A program made the position numbers and the translations under genes. From NCBI GenBank assembly GCA_964538855.1, contig CAZIEY010000001.1, forward strand, positions 163,059 to 227,058: DNA of 64,000 nt, read 5' to 3'. Below, piece after piece: positions 5,657-22,419 of the stretch. The notes below the pieces were generated by a model. That model made no database searches. It was not told where the DNA came from and was given only the letters and a program-made list of their open reading frames with translations. This DNA comes from an uncultured Candidatus Saccharibacteria bacterium. Lineage in GTDB: Bacteria; Patescibacteriota; Minisyncoccia; Phycocordibacterales; JAACPR01. Within the stretch, counting starts at the first letter, position 1. Every line of letters starts with the position of its first letter.

Positions 5657-6766
5657 ATGAAAATAAACAAGATAATCATAGCGATTTGTGTCGTGATTGC
5701 CACGCTCGGTATTTTTTCCTATAACCACAATCGGGAAGGAACCCTACAAATAGGAGTAGTCGCGTCGCTTACGGGCCCCGGAGCATATTTCGGAGAACAG
5801 TTTGTTTCGGGTTTGTCGATGGCACGTGATGATATCAACGCTCGCGGTGGAGTACGCGGACAAAAAATTGAGCTTATTATAGAAGACAGCCAGACAAAAG
5901 ACACCACTGCCCTTTCGGCTGCCAAAAAGCTAGTCGAGGTCGATCACGTCTCGGTCATCCTAGGAGATTCATGGAATAGCACGACACTCGCAATGCATCC
6001 ATATCTCATGGAACAAAAAGTGATACTTGTTTCTCCGCATATTTCTCTGAACTCGCTTGCGGTAGAAGATTATGCATTCCGCCTGATTCCAAGTACACAC
6101 GAATTTGTCACCCCAATCGCCGACTATGCAGTTGCGCACGATGTACACAAAATTGCAATTGCGCGTGTGCAAAGTCAATTTGGGCAGGAACATGTGGAAT
6201 CTTTTAAGAAAATGTTTGAGGGTGATACCCGTACCATTGTTGCTGACGAAGTTTTCAGTCCATCAGCCACCGACATACGATCTGAGCTCACAAAAATAAA
6301 ATCACAAAATCCTGATGCGGTGTTCAATTTGCACTTATCTGGATTACCTGTCGGATTTCTAATAAAACAGGCGGTCGAAGTTGGTCTAAAGACGCAATGG
6401 TTTGCGGCGTGGAGCTTCGAGAACACAGCACTTCTCAAAGAATACGGCCCTATTCTTGAAGGTGTGATTTACCCTGCTTTTTATGATGAGACGGCTTCGG
6501 CGCGCTCGGAAAATTTTGTTGACCGTGTGAAGAAAATGCAAAAGCCACATGATATGTTTATCGCGCTTGGATATGACACACTCGCAGTGATATCAGATGC
6601 ACTCAACCAGAAAGATGTGCCTAACGCAGACAGTATAAAAAATGCGCTCGAAAATATGCAAGACTTTGAGGGTGTGTCTGGAACTTTTAGCTTCGATAAT
6701 AACGGGGACGCGGTGCGCACTATTTTCTTGAAGACGGTGAGAGACGGTGAGTTCGTGAAATTATAA
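5657..6766 (+). CDS. LivK/Peripla_BP_6-type solute-binding protein, membrane-anchored, orphan
   Basis: N-terminal TM anchor (MKINKIIIAICVVIATLGIF). IGVVASLTGPGAYFGEQ and ELIIEDSQ...SAAKKLV motifs of branched-chain amino-acid binding proteins. No permease or ATPase gene nearby. Confidence 0.8.
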   Translation: MKINKIIIAICVVIATLGIFSYNHNREGTLQIGVVASLTGPGAYFGEQFVSGLSMARDDINARGGVRGQKIELIIEDSQTKDTTALSAAKKLVEVDHVSVILGDSWNSTTLAMHPYLMEQKVILVSPHISLNSLAVEDYAFRLIPSTHEFVTPIADYAVAHDVHKIAIARVQSQFGQEHVESFKKMFEGDTRTIVADEVFSPSATDIRSELTKIKSQNPDAVFNLHLSGLPVGFLIKQAVEVGLKTQWFAAWSFENTALLKEYGPILEGVIYPAFYDETASARSENFVDRVKKMQKPHDMFIALGYDTLAVISDALNQKDVPNADSIKNALENMQDFEGVSGTFSFDNNGDAVRTIFLKTVRDGEFVKL

Positions 6767-6793: not shown

Positions 6794-7369
6794 TTACTCG
6801 CGATCACGAAACCCTATCGGCTCTTTCTGCTTCTCCTCCTCTATCAAAAATTGCCGAATAGCCTGAAAGACGATTTTGAAATGACTATCGTATTTTTTCT
6901 CGAGCAATTCAATCTTTTCCCGCAATTCTTTGTGCGAGTCGATCATCTCGCGCAGCTTTGTAAAAATTCGAATAATTTGAATGTTGACGCGAATCGCCTT
7001 CTCACTATTGAGCACACTCGAAAGCATTGCGATGCCTTGTTCGGTGAAGACATAGGAACCATATTTTATGTTATGCCCAGACTTATTTTTCAAGGTCGCA
7101 AATTGCGACCTTGGGTCTATTCCGTCGTTTGAGGTCGCAAATTGCGACCTCAAAAACATTTCCGTTTCTTCAACTGACAATTGAAACATGAAATCATCTG
7201 GAAACCGATCATGATTTCTTTTTACTGCTTCGTTGAGACGCTTCGTCACCACCCCATACAGTAACGCCAAATCCCTATCGAACATGACTTTGCGACCGCG
7301 AATATAATAAATTTTGTTTTTAATGTCTTGATGAGTCAAACTTTCGGCGATTCCAATTTCTTTTTTCAT
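6794..7369 (-). CDS. ORF6N-domain protein (KilA-N-like DNA-binding, antirepressor-type)
   Basis: IYYIRGRKVMFDRDLALLYGV.TKRLNEAVKRNHDRFPDDFMFQL matches the ORF6N domain. C-terminal coiled coil. Contains an in-frame duplicated RSQFAT segment. Confidence 0.65.
   Translation of the reverse strand: MKKEIGIAESLTHQDIKNKIYYIRGRKVMFDRDLALLYGVVTKRLNEAVKRNHDRFPDDFMFQLSVEETEMFLRSQFATSNDGIDPRSQFATLKNKSGHNIKYGSYVFTEQGIAMLSSVLNSEKAIRVNIQIIRIFTKLREMIDSHKELREKIELLEKKYDSHFKIVFQAIRQFLIEEEKQKEPIGFRDRE
7093..7150. repeat. Two direct copies of a 19-bp near-palindrome (aggtcgcaaattgcgacct) spaced 39 bp, inside the ORF6N CDS
   Basis: Seen directly. GGTCGC-N5-GCGACC inverted repeat at 7093-7111 and 7132-7150. Encodes the duplicated peptide RSQFAT. 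Confidence 0.8.
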
Positions 7370-8683: not shown

Positions 8684-10864
8684 ATGCATCCACATTCCCC
8701 TCTCACCGAACATTTTCGCCTCAACGAATCGCAAAAGTTAGCGCTCGAAAAATTGCACATCAAAACGATCGAGGACTTGCTCTACTATTTCCCAACGCGT
8801 TACATCAACAGCGCAACCGTGCATTCGATTGGAACCTTGACCGAGAAAACCGAGGCGACTATTTACGGTACCATCAAGAAAATCAAAACTGGCAAAACGT
8901 GGCGTGGAAAAATGCCAATGGCCGAAGCAATTATTACTGATGGAACCAAAACTGTGCGAGCTATTTGGTTTCACCAACCATACATCGCGAAAATGTTTTT
9001 GGAAGGTGCAACAGTGCGACTCGACGGACGGGTTGGCAGCGCGGACAAAACCGGACGATTTACTCTGACGAATCCAAAAATCGAACATGCCGAGGGTGAG
9101 ATGCCGATCGCACCCGACGATTCCCTGTTCGCAGAAGCCGCCGCAAACCCCGCAAAATTCTACCCCGTCTACCCCGAATCGCGTGGAATAACTTCTAATT
9201 GGATGTATCATGCGATGCAAAAGATTTTTAAAAGCGGTTTGCTCGACATTGCCGCCGATCCAATTCCCACCGAAATTCTCGAGCGCTACAAATTACCAGG
9301 AATTAAAACCGCACTCATCTGGATTCATACCCCGCAAAAAGACAGCGACGCGACCGCGGCACGCAAACGCTTTGCGTTTGAAGAAATTTTTTACATTCAA
9401 ATCAGCAAACGTCTTGAGAAAGAAAAAACAGCACAATTAAAGTCATATGCAATTGCCTCAGACGCCGATGACATGCGTGATTCCAAAATCACAAAATTTA
9501 CTGCGAATTTCCCCTTCGAGATGACAGACTCACAACAACGCGCCATAACAGACGTGCTCGATGATATGCGCAAAGGCACACCAATGTCGCGACTACTCGA
9601 GGGTGATGTTGGGTCCGGAAAAACTGCGGTGGCAGCAACAGCAGTTTTCGCCGCAGTCGAAGCAAACCTACAGGCCGCCTATATGGCACCGACTGAAATT
9701 CTGGCCAAGCAACACTTTGAGAGCTTCATTACCTATTTTGAAAATTCGGCAAAAAAATTCGGATTGCAACGCAACATTGAAATCGGACTTCTCACAAGCA
9801 GTGGCTGTCGAAAATTTCCCTCAAAAATCAACCCTCGAGAATCGACGCCAATTTCACGAGCACAACTCTTGAAATGGGTTGCAGCCGGCCAGATTCCAAT
9901 TGTAATCGGCACACACTCGCTCATTCAAAAAGCGGTTGAATTCAAAAATCTCGCACTCGTCATTATCGATGAGCAACACAGGTTCGGTACGGCGCAGCGA
10001 CAAAAATTGGCGAAAAAAGAAGGTTTCGCACCGCACCTTTTGTCGATGACTGCGACGCCGATTCCGCGCACACTCGCGTTGACCATGTATGGAGACCTCG
10101 ACCTATCACTGCTTGATCAAATGCCCACTGGTCGCAAACCAATTATTACCGAGATCATCACACCGAAACGGCGCGCATACGTGTATGAAAAAATCCGAGC
10201 TGAAATAGCTGCTGGGCGCCAAGCCTATGTTATTTGCCCTCGCATCAACGAACCAGACCCAGAAAAAGAATTCGCGATTTTAGCGAAATCTGTTGCAGCC
10301 GAAGCAACCCGTTTGCGACGTGAAGTTTTCCCAGGCCTCGTCATTGCCGAGATGCACAGCAAGATGACACCGAACGAAAAAGACGACACTATGGCACGAT
10401 TCGCCGCAGGTGAAATTCATATTTTAGTTTCAACGTCGGTCGTCGAAGTCGGTGTGAACGTACCAAACGCGACCAATATCATTATCGAAGGTGCCGAACG
10501 TTTCGGTCTCGCACAATTACATCAATTACGCGGGCGCGTCGTGCGCAGTAATCATCAAGCCTACTGTTACGTCTTTACTGACTCGCGCAGCGAACAAACG
10601 CTGGCTCGTCTCAAGGCGCTCGTCACAGCACGAAACGGATTTGAATTGGCCGAACATGATTTGAAATTGCGCGGTGCCGGCGAACTTTCCGGCGGCGTCC
10701 AATGGGGTGTGAGTGACCTTGGTATGGAAGCTATCAAAAATATCAAGATGGTTGAAGCAGCACGTAACGAGGCAACTAAAATTGTCGCAGCCGATACAAC
10801 GCTTGCGCACTTCCCGCTTCTCAAAAAGAAAATCGCCCGCATCGGCGAAATTCATTTCGAGTAA
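8684..10864 (+). CDS. recG: ATP-dependent DNA helicase RecG
   Basis: 726 aa. N-terminal wedge/OB domain. Helicase motifs GDVGSGKT, DEQHRFG, and TATPIPRTL. Confidence 0.9.
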   Translation: MHPHSPLTEHFRLNESQKLALEKLHIKTIEDLLYYFPTRYINSATVHSIGTLTEKTEATIYGTIKKIKTGKTWRGKMPMAEAIITDGTKTVRAIWFHQPYIAKMFLEGATVRLDGRVGSADKTGRFTLTNPKIEHAEGEMPIAPDDSLFAEAAANPAKFYPVYPESRGITSNWMYHAMQKIFKSGLLDIAADPIPTEILERYKLPGIKTALIWIHTPQKDSDATAARKRFAFEEIFYIQISKRLEKEKTAQLKSYAIASDADDMRDSKITKFTANFPFEMTDSQQRAITDVLDDMRKGTPMSRLLEGDVGSGKTAVAATAVFAAVEANLQAAYMAPTEILAKQHFESFITYFENSAKKFGLQRNIEIGLLTSSGCRKFPSKINPRESTPISRAQLLKWVAAGQIPIVIGTHSLIQKAVEFKNLALVIIDEQHRFGTAQRQKLAKKEGFAPHLLSMTATPIPRTLALTMYGDLDLSLLDQMPTGRKPIITEIITPKRRAYVYEKIRAEIAAGRQAYVICPRINEPDPEKEFAILAKSVAAEATRLRREVFPGLVIAEMHSKMTPNEKDDTMARFAAGEIHILVSTSVVEVGVNVPNATNIIIEGAERFGLAQLHQLRGRVVRSNHQAYCYVFTDSRSEQTLARLKALVTARNGFELAEHDLKLRGAGELSGGVQWGVSDLGMEAIKNIKMVEAARNEATKIVAADTTLAHFPLLKKKIARIGEIHFE

Positions 10865-10874
10865 ATACAAAACT

Positions 10875-12713
10875 TTACCAACTTCCACCGCCTCCCCCTC
10901 CGCCACCTCCGCCAGAAGAACCCCCGCCGCCACTACCGCCAGGTGTAGAAGTTAAAGATATCTCGGCGTTTGCGCTAAAAGATGAAAGCGAACTATAAAA
11001 AATGGATGCGTTAAACATCGAACCCGTAGATCCCGAATACCATTGCGGAGCAACATTATAGATACCATCAAATTCCTTCGCCCAAATTTCAGCGACACCA
11101 AGCACCATAGCGTACGGTAAAAGCTTTTCAAAAAATTCTGGTTTTTTATCTGGTGCATTATGAAATTCGAGACGGCTTTTTTCAGCAATTTGTAAATAAT
11201 CTTTTAATCCCAAAATATATTCTTTAAGAGCGACACCCTTTGGAGTTTTCGCGGGACTAAAATAAGTAACGACCGAAATAATCGCACCGCACAAAATCAG
11301 ACTCAAAATAAATACGTCTGTGTGTGCGGGGAAAAATATACTCCCAATAAGTACTCCGAAGACAAGTGACCCAATTACTATCGCGAAAGCAATACCCACC
11401 ACAGAACCATTGAAGCTTAATCCCCCCTTCATTCTGCCAAGATTTCTATAATATCCTTTCTGAACAAGCGAATTCATCGCCTCCTTCGAAACAGTTTGCG
11501 CGTGCATATAAAATACATCTCGCAACTCTGACAAGAGCACAGATTTTTCTCCAACAGTCCCCACATCTACAGAAGTGTTGTGTGACTTACTCTTAAAAAT
11601 ATTTTTTAGAAATTGGGGCGCGAGCGGAAATGGCGAAGTTTGCATATTAAAGAGCGCATCCAAAAGAGTGCGATCAAACTTGTTGAGAGAATCATCCGCA
11701 TCTTTTAATTTCACTAATTTATAATCAAATTGTTTGATAAGCCAGAGTAATTTCGATTCGACTTGCACAATTTTCAAATAACCTCTCGTTGCCAAGTAAA
11801 TAATTTCGGCTGAAATATCCTTAGAAGTAATTTTCTGCTGAGCAAGCGCTGCTACTTCCATCGGTGTTAAATTATCCGGCACATCATATTGAGGCACTAT
11901 CACACCAGTACCACGCGGATCTCGACCGTACTTTTTCCAATACAAAAAAGACAAGACGAGCACAACAATTGGCAAAAGTATCGAGACAATATATCCCAAA
12001 TACATTGTGATAAAAAGTGACCTTTCATCTGAAGGTGTGTAAGGATGTATAACACCCTTATTAATTCCCGCAGCAATGGTTAAACCTTCCCCACTATGTA
12101 ACTCGCGCGGTGCAACAAAATAAAATTTTTCTCCCTTTTTTTCATACGTACATGTATTTGTAGACCCTATCACACCAAAATAACATGCGGCCTGGGTAGA
12201 AATTGCGTTTGACGGAAATGTAACGACAGCGCTCGAATACAGAATCGGCATATTCCAACCATTCCCCGTCACATCCCAATATATTTCATCAAAATTTTCG
12301 AACTGACCAACCGCTTTTGTTGCGCGATAATAAATATTATAAGTTTTCTGACCAGAAAATACTCGATCTGGATCTCCAATTTTTATTCGAAAATAATCAC
12401 CTTCTCTGAAAGTTGTAAAAATATACGGCTTTCCCACCTCATCAGTCACACGCACGTCGTCGATTTCCATCTTTCTCCCTTGGGATGAGTACAGATAAAT
12501 ATCTCTAAAAATTCCGTGATGTGATTCTGTTCCGGTGTTATAGACAATTGATTCCAAAACATTAACAGAGTTATCGACATGTACAGTGATATCTGCAGTG
12601 TAAGAAACGATATGCTCGTACGACAACGTATCAGTTTGAGCATGTGCTGAACGAGAAAAAACAAACCCAAAGGCAATTACAAATAAAAAGACTCGCCAAA
12701 TTCTCTTACGCAT
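10875..12713 (-). CDS. DUF2207-like membrane protein with C-terminal poly-Gly tail
   Basis: Signal peptide (MRKRIWRVFLFVIAFGFVFSRSAHA), an extracytoplasmic domain, 3-4 TM segments, and a C-terminal GGSGGGGSSGGGGGGGGGGSW tail. Internal Met chosen as start; the ORF runs to 12779. Confidence 0.55.
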   Translation of the reverse strand: MRKRIWRVFLFVIAFGFVFSRSAHAQTDTLSYEHIVSYTADITVHVDNSVNVLESIVYNTGTESHHGIFRDIYLYSSQGRKMEIDDVRVTDEVGKPYIFTTFREGDYFRIKIGDPDRVFSGQKTYNIYYRATKAVGQFENFDEIYWDVTGNGWNMPILYSSAVVTFPSNAISTQAACYFGVIGSTNTCTYEKKGEKFYFVAPRELHSGEGLTIAAGINKGVIHPYTPSDERSLFITMYLGYIVSILLPIVVLVLSFLYWKKYGRDPRGTGVIVPQYDVPDNLTPMEVAALAQQKITSKDISAEIIYLATRGYLKIVQVESKLLWLIKQFDYKLVKLKDADDSLNKFDRTLLDALFNMQTSPFPLAPQFLKNIFKSKSHNTSVDVGTVGEKSVLLSELRDVFYMHAQTVSKEAMNSLVQKGYYRNLGRMKGGLSFNGSVVGIAFAIVIGSLVFGVLIGSIFFPAHTDVFILSLILCGAIISVVTYFSPAKTPKGVALKEYILGLKDYLQIAEKSRLEFHNAPDKKPEFFEKLLPYAMVLGVAEIWAKEFDGIYNVAPQWYSGSTGSMFNASIFYSSLSSFSANAEISLTSTPGGSGGGGSSGGGGGGGGGGSW

Positions 12714-14339: not shown

Positions 14340-16292
14340 TTACAACGCCTCCTTCTTCACCGGATGTGCAACTTTAATACCATGTGCAGCGAGCAACGCT
14401 TCGTAGTCTTCGCGTTCAATCGTTTCGACGTCGAGAAGGCGTTGCGCCAAAATTTCGAGGACTTTGCGATTTTCAGTGAGGATTTTTTCTGCGCGGGCAC
14501 GGGCTTCGGTCATGATGCGAGACACTTCGGCGTCGATTTTCGTTGAGACAGATTCAGAATATTCTTGACCTTCGATGCCACCGCGTCCGAATAATGTGCG
14601 GCCACTTCCCTCGAGGGCGATTGGTCCGAATGCGTCTGACATTCCATAACGTGTGACCATATCACGAGCAAGCGCTGTTGAAACTTGTAAATCATTGGAA
14701 GGTCCAGTCGTTACATCTCCGAATATCATTTGTTCAGTCACATAACCACCGAGTGACATTGCGAGGTCGTCGAGAAATGCTTTGCGAGATTGCAATTTGC
14801 GTTCTTCGTTTGGCAATTTCATTGTGTAACCACCCGCATGACCGCGCGCGATGATAGAAATTTTGTGCACAGGATCCGCGTCAGGCAAAATTGATGCAAC
14901 GAGTGCATGCCCCGCTTCGTGATATGCAGTAATTTCGCGTTCTTTTTTCGAGAGCAAGTGATTTCGGCGCTCAGGACCGAGCATGACTTTTTCAATCGAA
15001 CGAATCAAATCGAATTGTGCAACAGTTTTTCGATTTTCACGCGCTGCCAAAATTGCAGCTTCGTTCACAAGAGAATATAAATCCGCACCAGAAAATCCTG
15101 GAGTTCGTTGTGCGATAACTTCGAAATTCACGTCTTCAGCGAGCGGTTTGTTTTTCGCCTGCACTTTCAAAATCGCCTCGCGGTCTTTGCGGTCTGGCAA
15201 ATCAATAGTGACACGCCGATCGAATCGGCCTGGTCGCAAAATTGCAGGATCCAAAACGTCTGGACGGTTTGTCGCTGCCATCACAATCACCTTCTCATTC
15301 GGATTAAATCCATCCATCTCCACCAAAATTTGGTTAAGTGTCTGCTCGCGCTCGTCATTCCCTCCACCCGTACCGACACCGCGCGCTCGTCCCACAGCAT
15401 CAATTTCGTCGATAAAAATAATTGCGGGCGCCGCAGCTTTTGCAATTTTAAACAAGTCACGCACACGAGATGCACCAACACCCACAAACATTTCTACGAA
15501 TTCAGAACCAGAAACCGAGAAAAAGTTCACACCCGCCTCGCCCGCTGTTGCACGCGCAAGAAGTGTTTTTCCAGTACCTGGTGAACCCATAAGCAAAATT
15601 CCCTTTGGAATTTGCGCACCGATGTCGATAAACTTTTTCGGATTTTTGAGGAAGTCTACAATTTCCATCAATTCCTGTTTTGCTTCTTCATTACCAGCGA
15701 CGTCTTTGAATGTAACTTTTTTCTTGTCGCTTGGATTAAAGAGGCGCGCATTAGCTTGGCCGAATGTGAAAGCTTGCATGCCGGCACCTTTTACTTGGCG
15801 AGATAAATACCAAATAATGATTCCAATCAAAAGAATTGGGAAAATAAACGGAGCGCTGACCGCGAGCCAGTAGCCAAACCCAGACGGATTTTGAATGTCG
15901 ATTTTAATTGGAGCAAGTTCCGTCGCAGTAATTCCGTAATTCGACAATGTTTCAGACAATGCTGCATCACTTTCTTTTTGAGTTGTCTTTGTGGCTTCGG
16001 TCGGGGTACCCTTTTCATACACCACATTAATTTGATCGCCCGACACCGCGATTTCAGAAACTTTACCCGCGCGAATATCAGCGGCTAATTGCGAGAGCGC
16101 AATCTCTTCGACATTTTTCTTTTGCTCTGCCACAAATGTGTAGAGGAAAATAATCATAATGATAATCAAAAATGTTGTGCTAAGATTTGCAAAAAATCCC
16201 GCCGGCTTTTTTGAGTTGTGCGACTTTTTCATTTTGTGCTGCGGAGCCTGATGTGGCGCCCCACCTGGTGGCGTCTGATTGTGTTTGGTCAT
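14340..16292 (-). CDS. ftsH: ATP-dependent zinc metalloprotease FtsH
   Basis: 650 aa. Two N-terminal TM segments, Walker A ([13 protein letters not shown]), the SRH region, and the HEAGHAL zinc site. Confidence 0.95.
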
Positions 16293-17354: not shown

Positions 17355-17804
17355 ATGACAAACTTGATCGAAAATCGCAAAGCAGGATTCAACTATGAAC
17401 TCGGAGACAAATACGAGGCTGGTATTGAATTGACTGGGCACGAAACGAAATCAATCAAAGCAGGCCGTGGAAATATGACCGGCTCTTTTATTGTGATTCG
17501 TGGTGGCGAGGCGTTTATTTCAGGACTCGAAATTACATCGTTTCAAGCAAACAACTCCCCAATCGATTTCGAACCGCGACGCATGCGCCGGCTGTTGCTC
17601 AAAAAAAGCGATATTTCAAAGCTCCAAATGGCGGAGCAACGCGACCGTTTGACACTCATCCCACTTTCGTTGTATAATAAGGGTAAGTTCGTGAAGCTAT
17701 CCTTTGCGGTAGCTCGCGGAAAAAAGAAGTCCGATAAGCGCGAATCCATTCGCCGCCGCGAAGACAACCGCGACATCGAACGCACCTTGAAATCACGTCG
17801 ATAA
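17355..17804 (+). CDS. smpB: SsrA-binding protein SmpB
   Basis: 149 aa. IENRKA..Y...YEAGIEL.G.E.KS motif family. Lys/Arg-rich C-terminal tail. Adjacent to the tmRNA. Confidence 0.9.
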   Translation: MTNLIENRKAGFNYELGDKYEAGIELTGHETKSIKAGRGNMTGSFIVIRGGEAFISGLEITSFQANNSPIDFEPRRMRRLLLKKSDISKLQMAEQRDRLTLIPLSLYNKGKFVKLSFAVARGKKKSDKRESIRRREDNRDIERTLKSRR

Positions 17805-17825
17805 TATATTCGGTCATTCACTGAA

Positions 17826-17950
17826 AAATATCGAATAAGTCAAAAGACCTGACGCATACTTTTTGAGTCTGGGTCCTCGCTCCAGGCATTGTCGCTGCGG
17901 AGGCCTCAAAAAGCACGCGTCATGTCTTTTATTAAACTTATTCGATATTT
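17826..17950. other. 125-bp nested imperfect palindrome (cruciform-capable hairpin) between smpB and ssrA
   Basis: Outer arms aaatatcgaataagt...acttattcgatattt (15 bp) plus caaaagac/gtctttt. Inner pairs tgacgc/gcgtca, ctttttgag/ctcaaaaag, and ctgg/ccag. Confidence 0.5.
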
Positions 17951-17954
17951 CTCA

Positions 17955-18326
17955 GGGGATGATCGGCTTCGATATACAATCGCCAATATATGTGCAGAAT
18001 AGAGCTCGAGTAACTCTTAAAAAGGCTCGAAACTACAAATGCAAAATCTGTCGTAAGCCCTTACTTTAAGGCAAACAAACTAGCATTCGCGTTCGCGTAA
18101 GCCAACACGACATCCGCGTATCTTACACCTGATACGATAAGGCGGGTGTTACCCCATCAGGTTAGGTGAAGTACACGCTCTTTGTACTTTTCCGAAACTC
18201 AAGGAGATCGGTCGCGCAACATTTCGTTCGCTCTAAGGTGCACGATCCAGAACAAAAAGCGTACTAGATTCTGTAGACTCATATATTGTCCTTGCATACA
18301 CGCGGGTTCGATTCCCGCCATCTCCA
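17955..18326 (+). ncRNA. ssrA: tmRNA (ssrA), one-piece; predicted tag ANKLAFAFA
   Basis: 5' end GGGGATGATCGGCTTCGA resembles the tmRNA 5' consensus. 3' T-arm GCGGG-TTCGATT-CCCGC and acceptor CATCTCC pair with 5' GGGGATG, including a G3-U70 pair. Resume codon GCA at 18071 and TAA at 18098 give the frame GCA AAC AAA CTA GCA TTC GCG TTC GCG. Confidence 0.8.
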
Positions 18327-18379
18327 CATTAAAAAGAAAATCACCCAACATTGGGTGATTTTCTTTTTAATGTGGAGAT
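18320..18379. repeat. Perfect inverted repeat with 29-bp arms and a 2-nt centre, overlapping the last nucleotides of ssrA
   Basis: atctccacattaaaaagaaaatcacccaa-ca-ttgggtgattttctttttaatgtggagat, verified base by base. Confidence 0.85.
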
Positions 18380-18535
18380 AAGAGGAGTAATGCGGAGCAT
18401 TACGACGGGAATCGAAAGCCGGAGCGGGTTACCTGTTTGGAGCGTTAGCGACAAATAGGTCGCGAGGCGGGGTCGCGAACACTTAGATTTTTATGAGCGA
18501 ATGCGAAATAAAAAGCTTAGTGATTTGTGACCGAT
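18372..18535 (+). ncRNA. Candidate structured RNA element, copy 1 (unnamed)
   Basis: Shares conserved blocks with 20139-20313: GTGGAGATAAGA, ACGACGGGAATCGAAAG, GGGGTCGCGAACACTTAGATTTTTATGAGCGAA, GCGAAATAAAAAGCTTAGTGATT.GTGACCGAT. Helix 18387-18403 shows compensatory changes relative to copy 2. Confidence 0.4.
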
Positions 18536-18663
18536 TCAAGACATTTTTCTCCAAAGTGATTCTAAGCTATTGGGATATTACGTAATCATTGACAAACCAC
18601 ACAACATTATGTAATGTACCAAATAGACGATTCATTTCCAACCCCAACCCCGAAGGAACTCTC

Positions 18664-19092
18664 ATGAACGCAACTGCAGATCTCATTCGCGACGACCGCT
18701 GCACCACAGCACTCAAACCGTTAGTCGAAGAGGGTGTCAACCGTCTGAAGACCTTCATCGTCTGCGCAAGCCTGGGCGATTTGAACAATTGGCACCTTCC
18801 CAAAGTCGGTCATGCCACCCTCAACCTAACGGTTCGGGATGGAAATATCGTCGAAGGGACGATTTCCATTCAGGATGGTGAAAACTTCACTGTCAAAGCC
18901 ATAGTCTCGGGACTGACGGGTAACTGCGTGGCGGTGATTGTGAATAAAAGCGAAGGTCCTGTGAAGCTGTATTTGAACATCCCACTCAAGGCTGACAGCA
19001 ACCCAGCTTTGTCAGCACTTTGTGAGATGAGAAAATGCGAGGAGCAGCAGCGAATTGAGAATGTCGCGACCAGGCTCAAAAACCTTCGATAG
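18664..19092 (+). CDS. Hypothetical protein (GC-rich)
   Basis: 142 aa from the ATG after the leader ccaaccccaaccccgaaggaactctc; the ORF opens at 18589. Followed by a terminator. Confidence 0.45.
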   Translation: MNATADLIRDDRCTTALKPLVEEGVNRLKTFIVCASLGDLNNWHLPKVGHATLNLTVRDGNIVEGTISIQDGENFTVKAIVSGLTGNCVAVIVNKSEGPVKLYLNIPLKADSNPALSALCEMRKCEEQQRIENVATRLKNLR

Positions 19093-19149
19093 TGGTAAAC
19101 CCACCCGGTGAAGCAACCGAAGAGTCCGAACCTCTTAAAACTGCCAAAC

Positions 19150-19190
19150 GGCACCTAGCGCTTTTAGCTCCTGGTGCCTTTACTTTTATT
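19150..19190 (+). terminator. Rho-independent terminator
   Basis: ggcacc...ggtgcc stem followed by tttacttttatt. Confidence 0.5.
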
Positions 19191-19198
19191 AACTGTCG

Positions 19199-19330
19199 AT
19201 AGAAGCGCCGGGAATCGAACCAGGAAGGGGTCGGGAAACCTGTGGTTTCCCGTGGAGGAAGGCAGTGAGCGATAGCGAGCGTTGGAAAACCGTGGGTTTC
19301 CAAGTTGATTCAATAGCGAAGCGACCCGCC
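19199..19330. other. GC-rich non-coding segment with two perfect hairpins and a minus-strand tRNA 3'-end-like fragment
   Basis: Hairpins cgggaaacc-tgt-ggtttcccg and ggaaaacc-gtg-ggtttcc. The reverse complement of 19199-19226 reads CCTGG-TTCGATT-CCCGG-CGCTTCT-A (T-arm plus 3' acceptor strand) with no matching 5' acceptor strand. Confidence 0.3.
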
Positions 19331-19377
19331 ATCCCTGCAATTTTAAAAAATCTATCAACATGTAGTATAATTCATTT

Positions 19378-19590
19378 ATGAAAAAGGCTTTTAAAATAAT
19401 ACTCTCGGTGTTGATTATATTTTTACTTTTGTCTGCATTACTAGCTTATCTAGTCTTTAGTGGACATATAGAATGTAATTTCCTAATTACAAACGGGCCT
19501 AGAGTAGAAGATTCGTTTATGTGTCCAATCATCGGTTTTTTGGGGTACATTTGGTATTTCATTTCGCTACCTTTTTCTCCATTCTTTTAG
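19378..19590 (+). CDS. Hypothetical small membrane protein (AT-rich)
   Basis: 70-aa ORF with two hydrophobic segments. Confidence 0.3.
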   Translation: MKKAFKIILSVLIIFLLLSALLAYLVFSGHIECNFLITNGPRVEDSFMCPIIGFLGYIWYFISLPFSPFF

Positions 19591-19809
19591 AATAAGCCTC
19601 TACATCACAAACAAGTCCTGGCCCCATACATTTACCACCTTAAAATAATGGTACAATTATTAGATGAGTAATTATAGAATACATCATTATTTACTAGTAA
19701 TAGTAATCACAATATTAACGATCATCGGTGCCTGGTATTATTTTACTAAAAAAATGTAAGCTGCGCTCGAGACAGCCAAGGTATCAAATCATATATTCTT
19801 AAATCAGAA

Positions 19810-20109
19810 TTGACTGCTTACGAAAATGTAATAAAAAATATCGACGGTAGTCAACATTTTGAAGACTGGAACATATTCCAAAAAATCAAAGATAGCGCGT
19901 CAATTTACGCACAGGACGTAAATAATTGTTACAGTGAACATACTTATCAGATAAAAAAAGGAAATATACTGGTTGAAGTAACCCAAGAGGAATTTCAAGA
20001 TTATTTAATGAGTAGCGCATTTAATAGCAATTTTTGTGAAAGTGCAGTTCAACTTACTAAGTCTGGCCCTAGCCCAGTCTTTATTAAAAATAATTTCTGT
20101 ACAAGATAA
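19810..20109 (+). CDS. Hypothetical protein
   Basis: 99-aa ORF, AT-rich, no motif. Confidence 0.3.
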   Translation: MTAYENVIKNIDGSQHFEDWNIFQKIKDSASIYAQDVNNCYSEHTYQIKKGNILVEVTQEEFQDYLMSSAFNSNFCESAVQLTKSGPSPVFIKNNFCTR

Positions 20110-20138
20110 TACCTTTCTAGTTGGTTCCAAATATTTCT

Positions 20139-20313
20139 GTGGAGATAAGAAGAGGTGCGCGGAGCGTACCGACGGGAATCGAAAGGCGCGGGCGGGGACC
20201 ACTCTGGTCGAGAGTATCGAGACCTGGGGCGCCGAGCCGGGGTCGCGAACACTTAGATTTTTATGAGCGAACGATAGAGAGCGAAATAAAAAGCTTAGTG
20301 ATTCGTGACCGAT
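20139..20313 (+). ncRNA. Candidate structured RNA element, copy 2 (unnamed)
   Basis: Direct, diverged copy (about 70% identity) of 18372-18535. Helix 20154-20170 (ggtgcgc-gga-gcgtacc) covaries with copy 1. Confidence 0.4.
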
Positions 20314-20362
20314 GATTAAAAATCTCTCCTATTTGATTTATACACACGCAAAAACACGCCTC

Positions 20363-20782
20363 TTATTTCACCGGAAATAAATGTTTAACAACTACAAGCA
20401 ACATTGTTGTTATCTGCAAAATAGTTGCAGTAATTAAAGTTCTAAAGTTCCAACTGTCCAAAGAAAAACCCAAATTCTTAAAGCCTTGATAAAAGGTAAT
20501 TGCAAACACTAACCCGGTTTCAACTGCTAAAAATAAAAACAATCTATCTAAAGTATTTCGCTTTAGAGCAATATTTTGTCTTAAATCTTCATTCTCAATT
20601 TCTTTCTTCTCCCGCTCATAGTCTCGTAGTTTATCTGGCACAGACTTACCTGAGCGAGAAAACGAGGATAAATATTTCTTGAAAAATTTGTTATCCGATA
20701 AATCTGAGTTTGATGATGTGATAAAACTCTTAAATAGCGCAATCTGCTCTTCCTGATTATTCTGAGACTTTGTATTTCCCAT
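20363..20782 (-). CDS. Hypothetical membrane protein (cytoplasmic N-domain, C-terminal TM pair)
   Basis: 139-aa ORF, last gene of the 22214-20363 minus-strand operon. Confidence 0.5.
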   Translation of the reverse strand: MGNTKSQNNQEEQIALFKSFITSSNSDLSDNKFFKKYLSSFSRSGKSVPDKLRDYEREKKEIENEDLRQNIALKRNTLDRLFLFLAVETGLVFAITFYQGFKNLGFSLDSWNFRTLITATILQITTMLLVVVKHLFPVK

Positions 20783-20786
20783 AGAT

Positions 20787-21368
20787 TTAACTTTCCAAGA
20801 GTTTTAACCTTTCTAGTCTTATAGACATCGCCAATGGAGAGACATCGAAAATCTCTGCGGTCTCTTCGATGTCCTTCACCTTACCCCACACCTCTCTCAC
20901 TAAATTTTCAGGCATAATTAGCTCGGCAGCAAAATTATTAGCCTCCTTCTCAATCTGACTGCTCTCTTGATCACTTAAACGAAACAACATTTTTGTACTA
21001 TCTAACGAATCCCCTCTGTCAATAATAGCGGATTCTATTTTTAATTTGTCTTGATGTAAAAAATAATGCCCTAATTCGTGAGCTAACGTAAAATGCTGTC
21101 GTGTTTTAGAATCATTTTTATTGATGATAATTGTAAATCTTTGTGCATCCTTCTCAAAAAAGATTACTCCTGATACATTGGACATATCATCAGTAAAATC
21201 GACATATGCAAATTTTAAATCTTGAATTTCACTTTCGATATTTTCATACGGAAAAGGAGACAGGTTTTTTGGATTGTATTTCTGTCTCACTTCTATAGCT
21301 TTAGATATAGCGCGTTCAATTTTTTGATCCATAGTGACAGTATTATATACGATAGGTTGCACACTCAC
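20787..21368 (-). CDS. ImmA/IrrE-family metallo-endopeptidase
   Basis: HELGHYFLH zinc motif and the downstream EANNFAAELIMP motif typical of the ImmA/IrrE (DUF955) family. Confidence 0.8.
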   Translation of the reverse strand: MSVQPIVYNTVTMDQKIERAISKAIEVRQKYNPKNLSPFPYENIESEIQDLKFAYVDFTDDMSNVSGVIFFEKDAQRFTIIINKNDSKTRQHFTLAHELGHYFLHQDKLKIESAIIDRGDSLDSTKMLFRLSDQESSQIEKEANNFAAELIMPENLVREVWGKVKDIEETAEIFDVSPLAMSIRLERLKLLES

Positions 21369-21416
21369 AATAATGCCCGCACAGAGTAACGAAAAATCGT
21401 AATATCTACTCTGAAC

Positions 21417-22214
21417 TTACTCAAGACTGGCTACCCCATCTGTACAAACAAACTTTCCCTCGTCTTTACTAAGCAAAAATGTACTATATATCAAATCTCC
21501 ACATGTTTGATAGTATCTCTTATCGTTAGATACTGTCTTGAATTCATAGTTATCTTTGTTTTTATGTTTTAAATACGAATTACAAACCTTCTGGTCTGCT
21601 TTTTGTAAAAATTTGGAATCACAGTCATTATCTTCAGCATAAATAAGTGCAATTTCGCTAATGCTTATACTTTTTACTTTCTTTTCTGGAATTTTATAAT
21701 CCACAAACATTAAATCCACCAAATCAGAGAGCATCTCTCTACATTTATCACTAGGCGCTTCTCCGCGACACTCTTGATCGTATTTTTTATCTAATTTTAT
21801 ATATTTAGGATTTTTAGAATAATTCAAACCACCTGTATATGTTGAAGGATAAGAAGATGTGTAACTTGGTACATACGTAGGTGTGTAGCTAGGTGTATAT
21901 GTTGGAGTGTAACTTGGAACAGAATACGAATTACTTTCATACAAAGACTTCCCTGTGTAGTAACTTGGATCTGTAATATAAGTTGGAGTATCCCAAGTCG
22001 AGCCTCGAGTACCATACGAACTATTGTATAAACCCTGGCTCGGCTTGTATCCATAATTATCGTACTTCAAACCGTTTGGATTGCTTCTAACATGAGGAGC
22101 AACGTAAGTTCCATTTGATCGATAATACCCTTTAACACTTACATAAGCATCGACATTAAATAACGGTGTAAATGACAATAACAATAAAAATAGACCGATT
22201 AGTAGTTTTTTCAT
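21417..22214 (-). CDS. Secreted Tyr/Ser/Thr/Pro-rich repeat protein with Cys-containing C-terminal domain
   Basis: Signal peptide MKKLLIGLFLLLLSFTPLFNVDA. Tandem PSYTPTYTPSYTPTYVPSYTSSYPSTY repeats (15-bp DNA period at about 21850-21960). Internal Met chosen; the ORF extends to 22313. Confidence 0.6.
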   Translation of the reverse strand: MKKLLIGLFLLLLSFTPLFNVDAYVSVKGYYRSNGTYVAPHVRSNPNGLKYDNYGYKPSQGLYNSSYGTRGSTWDTPTYITDPSYYTGKSLYESNSYSVPSYTPTYTPSYTPTYVPSYTSSYPSTYTGGLNYSKNPKYIKLDKKYDQECRGEAPSDKCREMLSDLVDLMFVDYKIPEKKVKSISISEIALIYAEDNDCDSKFLQKADQKVCNSYLKHKNKDNYEFKTVSNDKRYYQTCGDLIYSTFLLSKDEGKFVCTDGVASLE

Positions 22215-22419
22215 ATAACCCCATCCTACCCCCTTCCAAAAATAAAACAAGCACTCCCTACTCACACCCCACCCCATCACCATCCCTATCCACATCAAAC
22301 ACATCCGCACCAATCACTCGTACCACTCCCGTATAATGAGGTCCGTTACCAGAGCCGCCAGCGCAGTCATATGTCACGTGGTGCCAAGCTATTGAAGGAT
22401 TACGCACCACTTGACATTA

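Follow-up and report, generated by a model that had tools for sequence, protein, structure and literature searches.

An apparently undescribed family of structured, target-matched elements frames a lineage-specific insert at the ssrA locus of a Patescibacteria genome

Genes for transfer RNA (tRNA) and transfer-messenger RNA (tmRNA) serve as integration sites of several kinds of genomic islands, and Williams (2002) is said to have distinguished sublocation classes of integration within them. In islands of this type (elements with crossover in the T-loop, including tandem accretions and integrase-less derivatives; cis-mobilizable elements (CIMEs) and tycheposons are examples), the site is the 3' end of the gene, a new 3' end from the T-loop onwards comes with the element, the old end is displaced as a direct repeat, and arrays with small variable cargo form at one gene, present in some relatives and absent from others. 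Tycheposons are the tRNA-targeting integrative islands of Prochlorococcus (bioRxiv 10.1101/2020.12.28.424599). In this study, the region downstream of the tmRNA gene (ssrA) was analysed in a 64,000-nucleotide (nt) stretch of the genome of an uncultured Candidatus Saccharibacteria bacterium (contig CAZIEY010000001.1, positions 163,059 to 227,058; below, the window, in whose numbering all unlabelled coordinates are given). It contains three members of a family of structured elements, here termed E, which shares the properties of tRNA and tmRNA islands listed above. E differs from these islands in that (i) no integrase lies in or near its units, which measure about 200 nt, (ii) a conserved, strand-specific fold of several helices and an inverted copy of the target are built into every unit, and (iii) a single family is spread over at least 14 tRNA types.

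We read the region, with a probability of about one half, as a tandem accretion of miniature, non-autonomous integrative elements that target T-loops, two of the units carrying orphan cargo. The observations behind this reading are the anatomy of the units, their single-strand fold, an insertion polymorphism among relatives, tandem arrays and the order in which arrays decay. What was inserted is a small build-up of orphan cargo, specific to the lineage, at an ssrA hot spot, and the element family framing it is the more important result. Family E is apparently widespread in Patescibacteria, structured, matched to its targets and undescribed; full-text literature searches found such elements described nowhere.

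The family pattern describes the conserved 3' module (GAGNCGGGGTCGCGA, a hairpin and GTGACCGAT), and it matched at least 120 metagenome loci (designated L with a number). Among the matches listed, about 95 of 125 copies have the module on the same strand as a tRNA or tmRNA gene and 65-137 nt downstream of it, and most of the others stand at contig starts. Besides tmRNA, 14 tRNA types are represented (Pro, Gly, Phe, Arg, Lys, Trp, Ala, Ile, Met, Glu, Thr, His, Leu and Cys). A blastn search with E against loci selected through SmpB found copies behind tmRNA in L010 and L014 and farther off in L013; main-type E occupies 5-6 of about 60 Patescibacteria tmRNA loci. Prevalence was estimated in a census of 81 tRNA/tmRNA genes from Patescibacteria loci picked through SmpB alone. 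The body sequence was ignored, and a gene was scored when an inverted T-loop plus T-stem matched at 11/12 or more positions within 200 nt and/or a direct 3'-end copy at 14/16 or more within 430 nt downstream. Thirteen genes (16%) were positive, the chance expectation for a 12-mer being about 1e-5 per gene, and these cases show further body subtypes, e.g. one with an NNNCC-TGTAA-GGNNN hairpin. In L137 (513-907) and L138 (about 6990-7290), tandem 272-nt repeats each hold a tRNA-Gln-like gene, with an odd T arm and uncalled by ARAGORN, and an E unit; the entire gene-plus-element unit seems to have been duplicated.

The family pattern had zero matches in IMG/VR viral contigs, and INPHARED and PLSDB yielded no phage or plasmid match; a phage or plasmid origin was rejected on these grounds. 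No family of Rfam 15, group I intron, permuted tmRNA, HEARO and IS605-orfB RNAs included, matched E in the window and seven other E-bearing loci, at gathering or at permissive thresholds; tRNA and tmRNA genes alone reached the gathering threshold. The best score over an E was 27.5 bits for tmRNA_permuted (threshold 47), from the end of the tmRNA across the terminator into the 5' part of E; this sub-threshold match is due to the palindrome there, and a permuted tmRNA or tRNA was discarded. So was a group I intron, since E follows a complete gene, lacks a U.G at the possible splice site and has no Rfam match. Published tRNA introns of Patescibacteria sit in the anticodon loop (PMC13011429).

A unit reads, in order: gene, spacer, inverted copy of the gene's 3' end, body and displaced direct copy of that end. 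The spacer usually holds an intrinsic terminator, and at times cargo in its place. The inverted copy consists of the reverse complements of the acceptor 3' strand and discriminator, followed by those of the T-stem 3' strand and T-loop, and is split by an optional hairpin, P1, absent in 20 cases and about 25 nt long in many. After AAG comes helix P2a (G-N-C with G-N'-C), whose N:N' pair is Watson-Crick in nearly all of 99 copies, with all four combinations occurring. There follow a GGA/GA internal loop, a covarying P2b, a variable P3 hairpin, CGGGG and P4, which has an invariant G.T pair in its base (GGTCGCGA/TYGTGACC) and a variable top. The unit closes with GAT, and then with the direct copy, which runs from the last T-loop base on. 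E begins TGTGGAGAT and finishes GTGACCGAT, and the closing helix GGAATCG:CGATTCC is universal.

Units are closely matched to their genes. The inverted T-loop follows even rare local variants (TGCGATT, TCCGATT, TTCAATT, TTCGATC and TTCGAGC), with 0.08 mismatches per 7 nt, and exact direct repeats of at least 14 nt were found in 31 of 76 units. The direct repeats cover 15 to 60 nt of target and often do not stop at the mature 3' end but take in trailer sequence (up to 60 nt); a DNA-level event is therefore indicated. This architecture matches the classical att design of T-loop-targeting elements, with a restored 3' end, an own terminator and a displaced old end. Intact direct repeats are anti-correlated with good inverted copies, from which we infer survivorship: units keeping both parts may excise.

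The fold of E is real and strand-specific. In 68 non-redundant bodies, 94.5% of cells were paired, compared with 71.4% in shuffles and at most 40% with slid partners; the covariation score was 0.56 against 0.14, and none of 500 shuffles reached 0.56. The tRNA-sense (+) strand folded better in all 68 copies (mean -47.5 versus -36.1 kcal/mol), and the consensus pairs include 129 G.U but 5 A.C. Mismatches between the inverted copy and the tRNA show no such enrichment (37 G.U versus 55 A.C), and selection at the RNA level for pairing of the two was rejected on this count. Template switching within quasi-palindromes is a known mutational process and could be what maintains the perfect palindromes; if so, no G.U bias is expected among the mismatches.

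Such a fold would also suit the chief rival explanation, in which E is a small RNA with a function of its own, or an RNA domain acting in cis, and is transcribed by read-through from the promoter of the tRNA or tmRNA gene. The ends of E would then pair as a tRNA-like acceptor and T helix, to be cut and CCA-tailed by tRNA enzymes or to modulate maturation of the adjacent tRNA; arrays would have arisen by local duplication, and the cargo genes would be unrelated insertions. Strong covariation, the G.U pairs, the invariant one at the base of P4 and a location invariably sense to the tRNA all agree with this, as does the absence of a mobility gene near E. Pairing is possible between the 5' inverted copy and the 3' tail, P1 then branching off at the position of the D and anticodon arms; in L082 the 5' strand matches its own tail better than the tRNA; and in a subclass without a terminator between tRNA and E, the tail ends exactly at the encoded CCA. 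An RNA role nevertheless appears unlikely, given the patchy occurrence in the census and at tmRNA loci, the position of most units behind a terminator with no intervening promoter, the missing G.U enrichment in the inverted copy, tails that are often fully decayed while bodies are intact, and direct repeats that continue past the mature 3' end, a DNA-level sign.

The motif GCGNAGC, which forms a mini-hairpin of exceptional stability in DNA, is a further feature. In 101 non-redundant units the + strand has 65 occurrences and the - strand a single one, more than 12-fold above flanks and mostly at the P3 tip; the motif is one hint of a fold at the DNA level. It is also among the points that favour a non-autonomous element of IS200/IS605 type (peel-and-paste, through single-stranded DNA) or a retro-element product, inserting 3' of TTCGAT in the T-loop, with the 3'-end copy plus inverted copy as left-end hairpin and P4 as right-end hairpin. 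Strand-specific hairpins tolerating G.T wobble in their stems, the lack of terminal inverted repeats and a short fixed target (of TTCGAT type, body and target both ending CGAT) fit as well. E shows target duplication, whereas IS200/IS605 elements make none; neither TnpA, TnpB nor a reverse transcriptase was seen near the E copies listed; a tail used as guide would make the element target its own restored gene; and repeats beyond the mature tRNA end speak against priming from mature tRNA. Of the explanations weighed here, this one is the least probable. For want of a nearby TnpB or IscB, and for the same difficulty with the guide, an omega/reRNA-like scaffold was rejected.

MITEs (miniature inverted-repeat transposable elements) and repetitive extragenic palindromes (REP) with their mosaic assemblies (BIMEs), mobilized by a REP-associated tyrosine transposase (RAYT), are likewise short, non-coding, structured, multicopy and intergenic. 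Like E, they lie downstream of genes and would need an enzyme in trans. E is unlike them in lacking terminal inverted repeats and a short target duplication of fixed length (its repeats measure 15 to 60 nt), and in its strict association with tRNA/tmRNA 3' ends, its single orientation and the target-specific sequence inside the element.

The insertion is visible in two relatives, L116 and L170, about 80% identical to the window over smpB-ssrA. In both, the tmRNA gene is followed by a perfect palindromic terminator (differing in sequence from that of the window) and one E2-like element, with nothing in between. The window segment 18371-20137 (1767 bp) is missing from both and is therefore a lineage-specific insertion, as the original prediction of accessory DNA at ssrA implied; in the comparison of gene order that it had proposed, neither relative had the same content.

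E units form tandem arrays at 19 loci. In heterogeneous arrays every unit brings a terminator of its own, and units of one array may differ in terminator and body subtype (L173, L193 and L080). In L173, L080 and the window, the 3'-end copy closest to the gene is intact and the farthest one decayed, which fits entry of new units at the T-loop of the live gene. In L186, two units 350 nt apart (5826-5943 and 6180-6290), one behind tRNA-Met and one behind tRNA-Asp, are identical over a P2-P3 core of about 70 nt and differ in their P4 tops; each carries a perfect 22-24-nt inverted copy of its own tRNA, the Asp copy ending CGAG, in agreement with the Asp T-loop. This reflects either recent retargeting or gene conversion of the core only.

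The element copies that flank the insert (E1 and E2, 84-88% identical) had been noticed beforehand as direct repeats bounding it. Their presence was confirmed; treating them as a mere boundary was too narrow, since they are the main object, members of a large family found behind many tRNA genes and not ssrA alone, and not plain att duplications. The GGGAATCGAA motif, the reverse complement of T-loop plus stem, starts at 18407, 19210 and 20174 on the + strand (about 0.2 occurrences expected on both strands), once in each of E1, E3 and E2. In E1, the inverted acceptor part spans 18371-18379, P1 18387-18403 and the inverted T-stem plus T-loop 18404-18416; the body (P2, P3 and P4) occupies 18417-18535 and terminates in GTGACCGAT. 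E1 matches the family profile (nhmmer E = 4.8e-17) and folds at -60.5 kcal/mol on the + strand (z = -6.4) versus -37.2 on the - strand. A hairpin difference between E1 and E2 is compensatory (GTAATGC/GCATTAC versus GGTGCGC/GCGTACC). E2, with P1 at 20154-20170, is 91-92% identical to the lone post-tmRNA element of L116 and L170. The coordinates of all features are collected in Table 1.

Table 1. Features of the ssrA region in the window.
Feature	Position	Strand	Source or size
ftsH	14340-16292	-	ORF list
smpB	17355-17804	+	ORF list and domain search
tmRNA gene (ssrA)	17955-18327	+	ARAGORN; Rfam RF00023, 96.6 bits
T-loop-to-3'-end segment of tmRNA, TTCGATTCCCGCCATCTCCACA	18307-18328	+	
Palindrome: tmRNA acceptor 3' strand, terminator-like hairpin and first 9 nt of E1	18320-18379	+	
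E1, proximal element copy	18371-18535	+	repeat comparison; family profile
Tail after E1, TCAAGACATTTTTCTCCAAAG	18536-18556	+	read from sequence
ORF142	18664-19092	+	ORF list
tRNA-like fragment, the inverted-copy module at the 5' edge of E3	19200-19224	-	read from sequence
E3, divergent element subtype	19200-19327	+	blastn to L038; alignment; third member L045
Non-coding block (E3 plus displaced tmRNA end)	19200-19339		read from sequence
Direct tmRNA 3'-end copy, displaced, slightly decayed, CCGCCATCCCTGCA	19326-19339	+	read from sequence
AT-rich segment, 32% GC, three small ORFs	19340-20137	+	composition; ORF list
ORF70	19378-19590	+	70 aa
ORF31	19664-19759	+	31 aa
ORF99	19810-20109	+	99 aa
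E2, distal copy	20138-20313	+	repeat comparison
Heavily decayed tail after E2, GATTAAAAATCTCTCCTA	20314-20331	+	
AT-rich minus-strand genes including ImmA/IrrE (CapP-like) protease	20363-22313	-	domain searches; PADLOC
ORF, open reading frame; aa, amino acids.

Between E1 and E2, the non-coding block with the tRNA-like fragment is a third, divergent member of the family, E3. The + strand of the fragment reads TAGAAGCGCCGGGAATCGAACCAGG; its reverse complement, CCTGG-TTCGATT-CCCGG-CGCTTCT-A, runs without a break through T arm, acceptor 3' strand and discriminator, the T stem having one T.C mismatch. The T arm and acceptor strand had been predicted on the minus strand, with bounds off by 1-2 nt. 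Neither ARAGORN nor Rfam called a tRNA there: ARAGORN found tRNA-Ser, tRNA-Ile and the tmRNA only in the window, and Rfam at E-values up to 10 gave zero tRNA matches in 18330-20400. The fragment had been likened to the tRNA 3' ends that integrative elements carry at att sites. A relation to attachment sites holds, yet it is not a displaced gene end but the inverted copy of the whole T arm and acceptor with which E3 opens. The motifs of E3 come in the order GGGGTCGGG, hairpin, CCCGTGGAGGAA, hairpin, AGCGAAGCGAC. Homologues with the same motifs stand behind tmRNA in L038 (blastn, 83% over 53 nt) and behind tRNA-Ile in L045, each opening with an inverted 3'-end copy of its own tmRNA or tRNA, and the alignment shows a compensatory change in the first hairpin. 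The block had also been singled out as hairpin-dense. Segment 19190-19340 folds no better than shuffled sequence (z = +0.15), and its weight comes from the homologous copies in L038 and L045, not from folding energy.

Displaced copies of the tmRNA 3' end stand in direct orientation behind E3 and behind E2. The copy behind E3 is identical to tmRNA positions 18315-18328 at 11 of 14 sites, and preceded by the TC at 18536-18537 it gives TCCCGCCATCCCTGCA, 13/16 identical to 18313-18328; that dinucleotide is perhaps its other half. Alternatively, the tail at 18536-18556 can itself be a separate decayed direct copy of the tmRNA 3' end.

The predicted gene at 18664-19092 and the small ORFs of the AT-rich part are all in the ORF list, and the predicted switch from GC-rich to AT-rich sequence was recovered as a step from 0.50 to 0.32 GC at about 19340 (0.49-0.54 over 18600-19300; 0.32-0.34 over 19300-20100). 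The AT-rich tract runs beyond E2 to about 22150, so the repeats, though present, are not a compositional boundary. What had been taken for a single insert is inserted DNA, but composite, seemingly of at least two separate small insertions: GC-rich ORF142 plus E3, and the AT-rich part with the small ORFs.

ORF142, ORF70 and ORF99 are orphans, and presumably so is ORF31. None of the first three has a Pfam, PHROG or PADLOC match, and ORF99 is a singleton with no homologue. ORF142 starts with ATG and encodes 142 aa (167 aa if translation began at the TTG at 18589); a promoter-like TTGACA-17-TAATGT lies at 18589-18617, and downstream are a conserved T-arm-like hairpin (19120-19136) and a terminator-like hairpin with T run (19150-19188). 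A fold search was abandoned because the predicted structure was too poor (mean predicted local distance difference test (pLDDT) score of 52.8). Among 5.8 billion clusters ORF142 has one homologue, 62% identical, which belongs to an E-type array behind tRNA-Leu in L198 and is flanked by tRNA-Leu 3'-end copies. The 3' flank (19093-19188) is conserved there as well (L198 4518-4600), with T-arm-like hairpin, AAAACT and terminator. The hairpin is AAGAG-TCCGAAC-CTCTT in the window and AGAGG-TTCAAGT-CCTCT in L198, where its loop is the T-loop of the local tRNA-Leu.

Under the accretion of T-loop-targeting elements proposed above, a unit would comprise a 3'-end copy from the T-loop onwards, which keeps the gene intact, a terminator or cargo, the inverted copy, the body and the displaced older copy. 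New units would come in at the T-loop of the live gene, displacing older ones outward. For the window, E2 would be old and shared with the relatives, and E1 a later arrival; the displaced old 3' end and terminator between them may then have been split by two small insertions, one of GC-rich ORF142 plus E3 (about 18538-19325) into the displaced end, and one of the AT-rich small ORFs (about 19340-20137) at the place of the old terminator. Because TC and CCGCCATCCCTGCA rebuild the tmRNA end, ORF142 plus E3 looks like a secondary insertion. Movement would be by site-specific recombination with an enzyme encoded elsewhere. The folded + strand may act as recombination site or cofactor, the relevant fold being the hairpin of 3'-end copy and inverted copy or the closing helix GGAATCG:CGATTCC.

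Several points weigh against this account. E is not tied to any recombinase: the six ORFs tested between 18664 and 22313 and the other 23 tested in the window contain no recombinase domain, and clustering of ORFs near E in about 120 loci, among the matches listed, gave only housekeeping families, with no integrase, transposase or reverse transcriptase. Neither an excised circle nor an exact empty site for a simple unit was observed. The unit of ORF142 plus E3 departs from the ideal plan, since the inverted copy of E3 mismatches the acceptor of the local tmRNA (CGCTTCT versus CATCTCC). The tail of E1 can be read in two ways, inseparable on present data, which makes the window history one among several readings. 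For the identical cores in L186, whose copies are only 350 nt apart, gene conversion could be the source instead of recent transposition. Finally, the conserved multi-helix body exceeds what a double-stranded att arm needs, and a functional RNA fits it equally.

Three Logan contigs of the same organism (L001, L002 and L003) break exactly at the tmRNA-end palindrome and at a 33-nt identity between E1 and E2. L003, 1765 nt long, corresponds to one repeat period; a circular L003 was considered as an excised circle and rejected, since its ends merely fall at the 33-mer shared by E1 and E2.

The original prediction had seen in the segment a degraded integrated element or a cargo locus of unknown function. 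A conventional integrase-borne island (prophage or integrative and conjugative element) at ssrA, later degraded, would explain the repeats as attL/attR-type remnants and E as an attP arm. The ssrA location, the direct 3'-end copies, the distinct composition and the adjoining ImmA/IrrE (CapP-like) gene agree with it, and the segment is indeed lineage-specific accessory DNA. The expected integrase remnants are missing, both from the segment and from the 29 window ORFs tested. Moreover, units of about 200 nt with full architecture, containing a terminator alone and found behind many tRNAs, are too regular for random deletion remnants, and phage and plasmid collections and viral contigs hold nothing that matches. 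In L013, a 5.1-kb island with a large serine recombinase lies between tmRNA and E, a further point in favour; compared with L133, the junctions of this island (TCCAC repeats) are its own and lie upstream of the terminator. Altogether, a decayed conventional island seems improbable.

The gene for the 535-aa L013 recombinase (10269-11876, - strand) stands at the head of the island, which precedes a terminator plus E unit; its final codons overlap the 3' end of the tmRNA, encoded on the other strand. The recombinase was rejected as partner of E on account of those junctions, between the tmRNA end and E's terminator, and the island looks like an independent insertion.

More tentatively, E may be the recombination module of an apparently undescribed cassette system anchored on tRNA/tmRNA T-loops, comparable to integron attC or CTX-phi attP sites. 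Folding of the + strand, be it single-stranded DNA or an RNA cofactor, would bring the inverted copy and a direct copy of the 3' end together in a double-helical imitation of the target. A recombinase encoded elsewhere would use this to add, pile up and remove cassettes, empty or with genes, downstream of essential RNA genes of Patescibacteria. Integron attC arrays, including clusters of attC sites lacking integron integrases (CALINs), consist of short elements that fold on one strand and keep structure over sequence, and they may occur without a neighbouring integrase. Like E, they form arrays in which small orphan ORFs of the same orientation stand upstream of the elements (all on the + strand of the window, ORF142 lies ahead of E3, and ORF70, ORF31 and ORF99 lie ahead of E2), and their crossover falls, as it would in E, inside a closing helix whose 3' part belongs to the next unit. 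E is unlike integrons in that its anchor is a tRNA T-loop and not attI, most units are empty with a terminator, and the fold is a multi-helix junction rather than a single bulged hairpin. By eye, the E consensus holds no R''/R' (RYYYAAC/GTTRRRY) or L boxes, and no IntI or tyrosine recombinase is among the tested ORFs. In CTX-phi-type integrative mobile elements exploiting Xer (IMEX), the attachment site forms by folding of two inverted sites in single-stranded DNA, and the host supplies the recombinase, as it likewise would for E. Both have inverted target-like sites with a short spacer that could form a duplex site on one strand, and both form tandem arrays. E differs in targeting the T-loop and not dif and in having no genes at all, and nothing in the data points to Xer or a single-stranded stage.

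As for the surroundings, the best SmpB matches among GTDB species representatives (56% identity) are in metagenome-assembled genomes of Paceibacterota and Vogelbacteria, and the chromosome is Paceibacteria-like. The palindrome at the tmRNA end has 29-nt arms, 100% complementary, around a 2-nt centre, and tmRNA 3' end, terminator and E1 fold together at -121 kcal/mol (z = -12.5). Immediately 5' of ssrA is another very long hairpin (17810-17966; arms 17811-17867 and 17905-17965; -70.1 kcal/mol, z = -9.2), and its right arm takes in the first 11 nt of the tmRNA. With hairpins on both sides of ssrA, the flanking complements can therefore sequester both tmRNA termini. A mirror-image inverted copy of the gene 5' end was rejected as a general feature, since the census showed no enrichment over control upstream of tRNA genes. 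Beyond E2, the block at 20363-22313 (up to about 22840) contains a 139-aa ORF, the ImmA/IrrE M78 protease (CapP-like, PADLOC 5e-30) and a 298-aa ORF. The relative L170 has unrelated genes between its E and an NYN gene common to both, one of them a 375-aa ORF that is periplasmic-binding-protein-like by eye; the whole ssrA-to-NYN stretch is therefore a variable hot spot.

The genomes of Patescibacteria are tiny, and their ways of gaining and losing genes are poorly established. For annotation, the partial tRNA 3' ends and long perfect palindromes created by E units break assemblies and can confuse the calling of tRNAs and islands. E is a well-defined structured nucleic acid, its fold backed by covariation in 68 aligned copies. 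If the reading given here is true, an element of about 200 nt sits at roughly one in six of the tRNA/tmRNA genes sampled, leaves the gene intact, stacks and sometimes brings orphan genes, and it would constitute a widespread, overlooked route of genome change in Patescibacteria.

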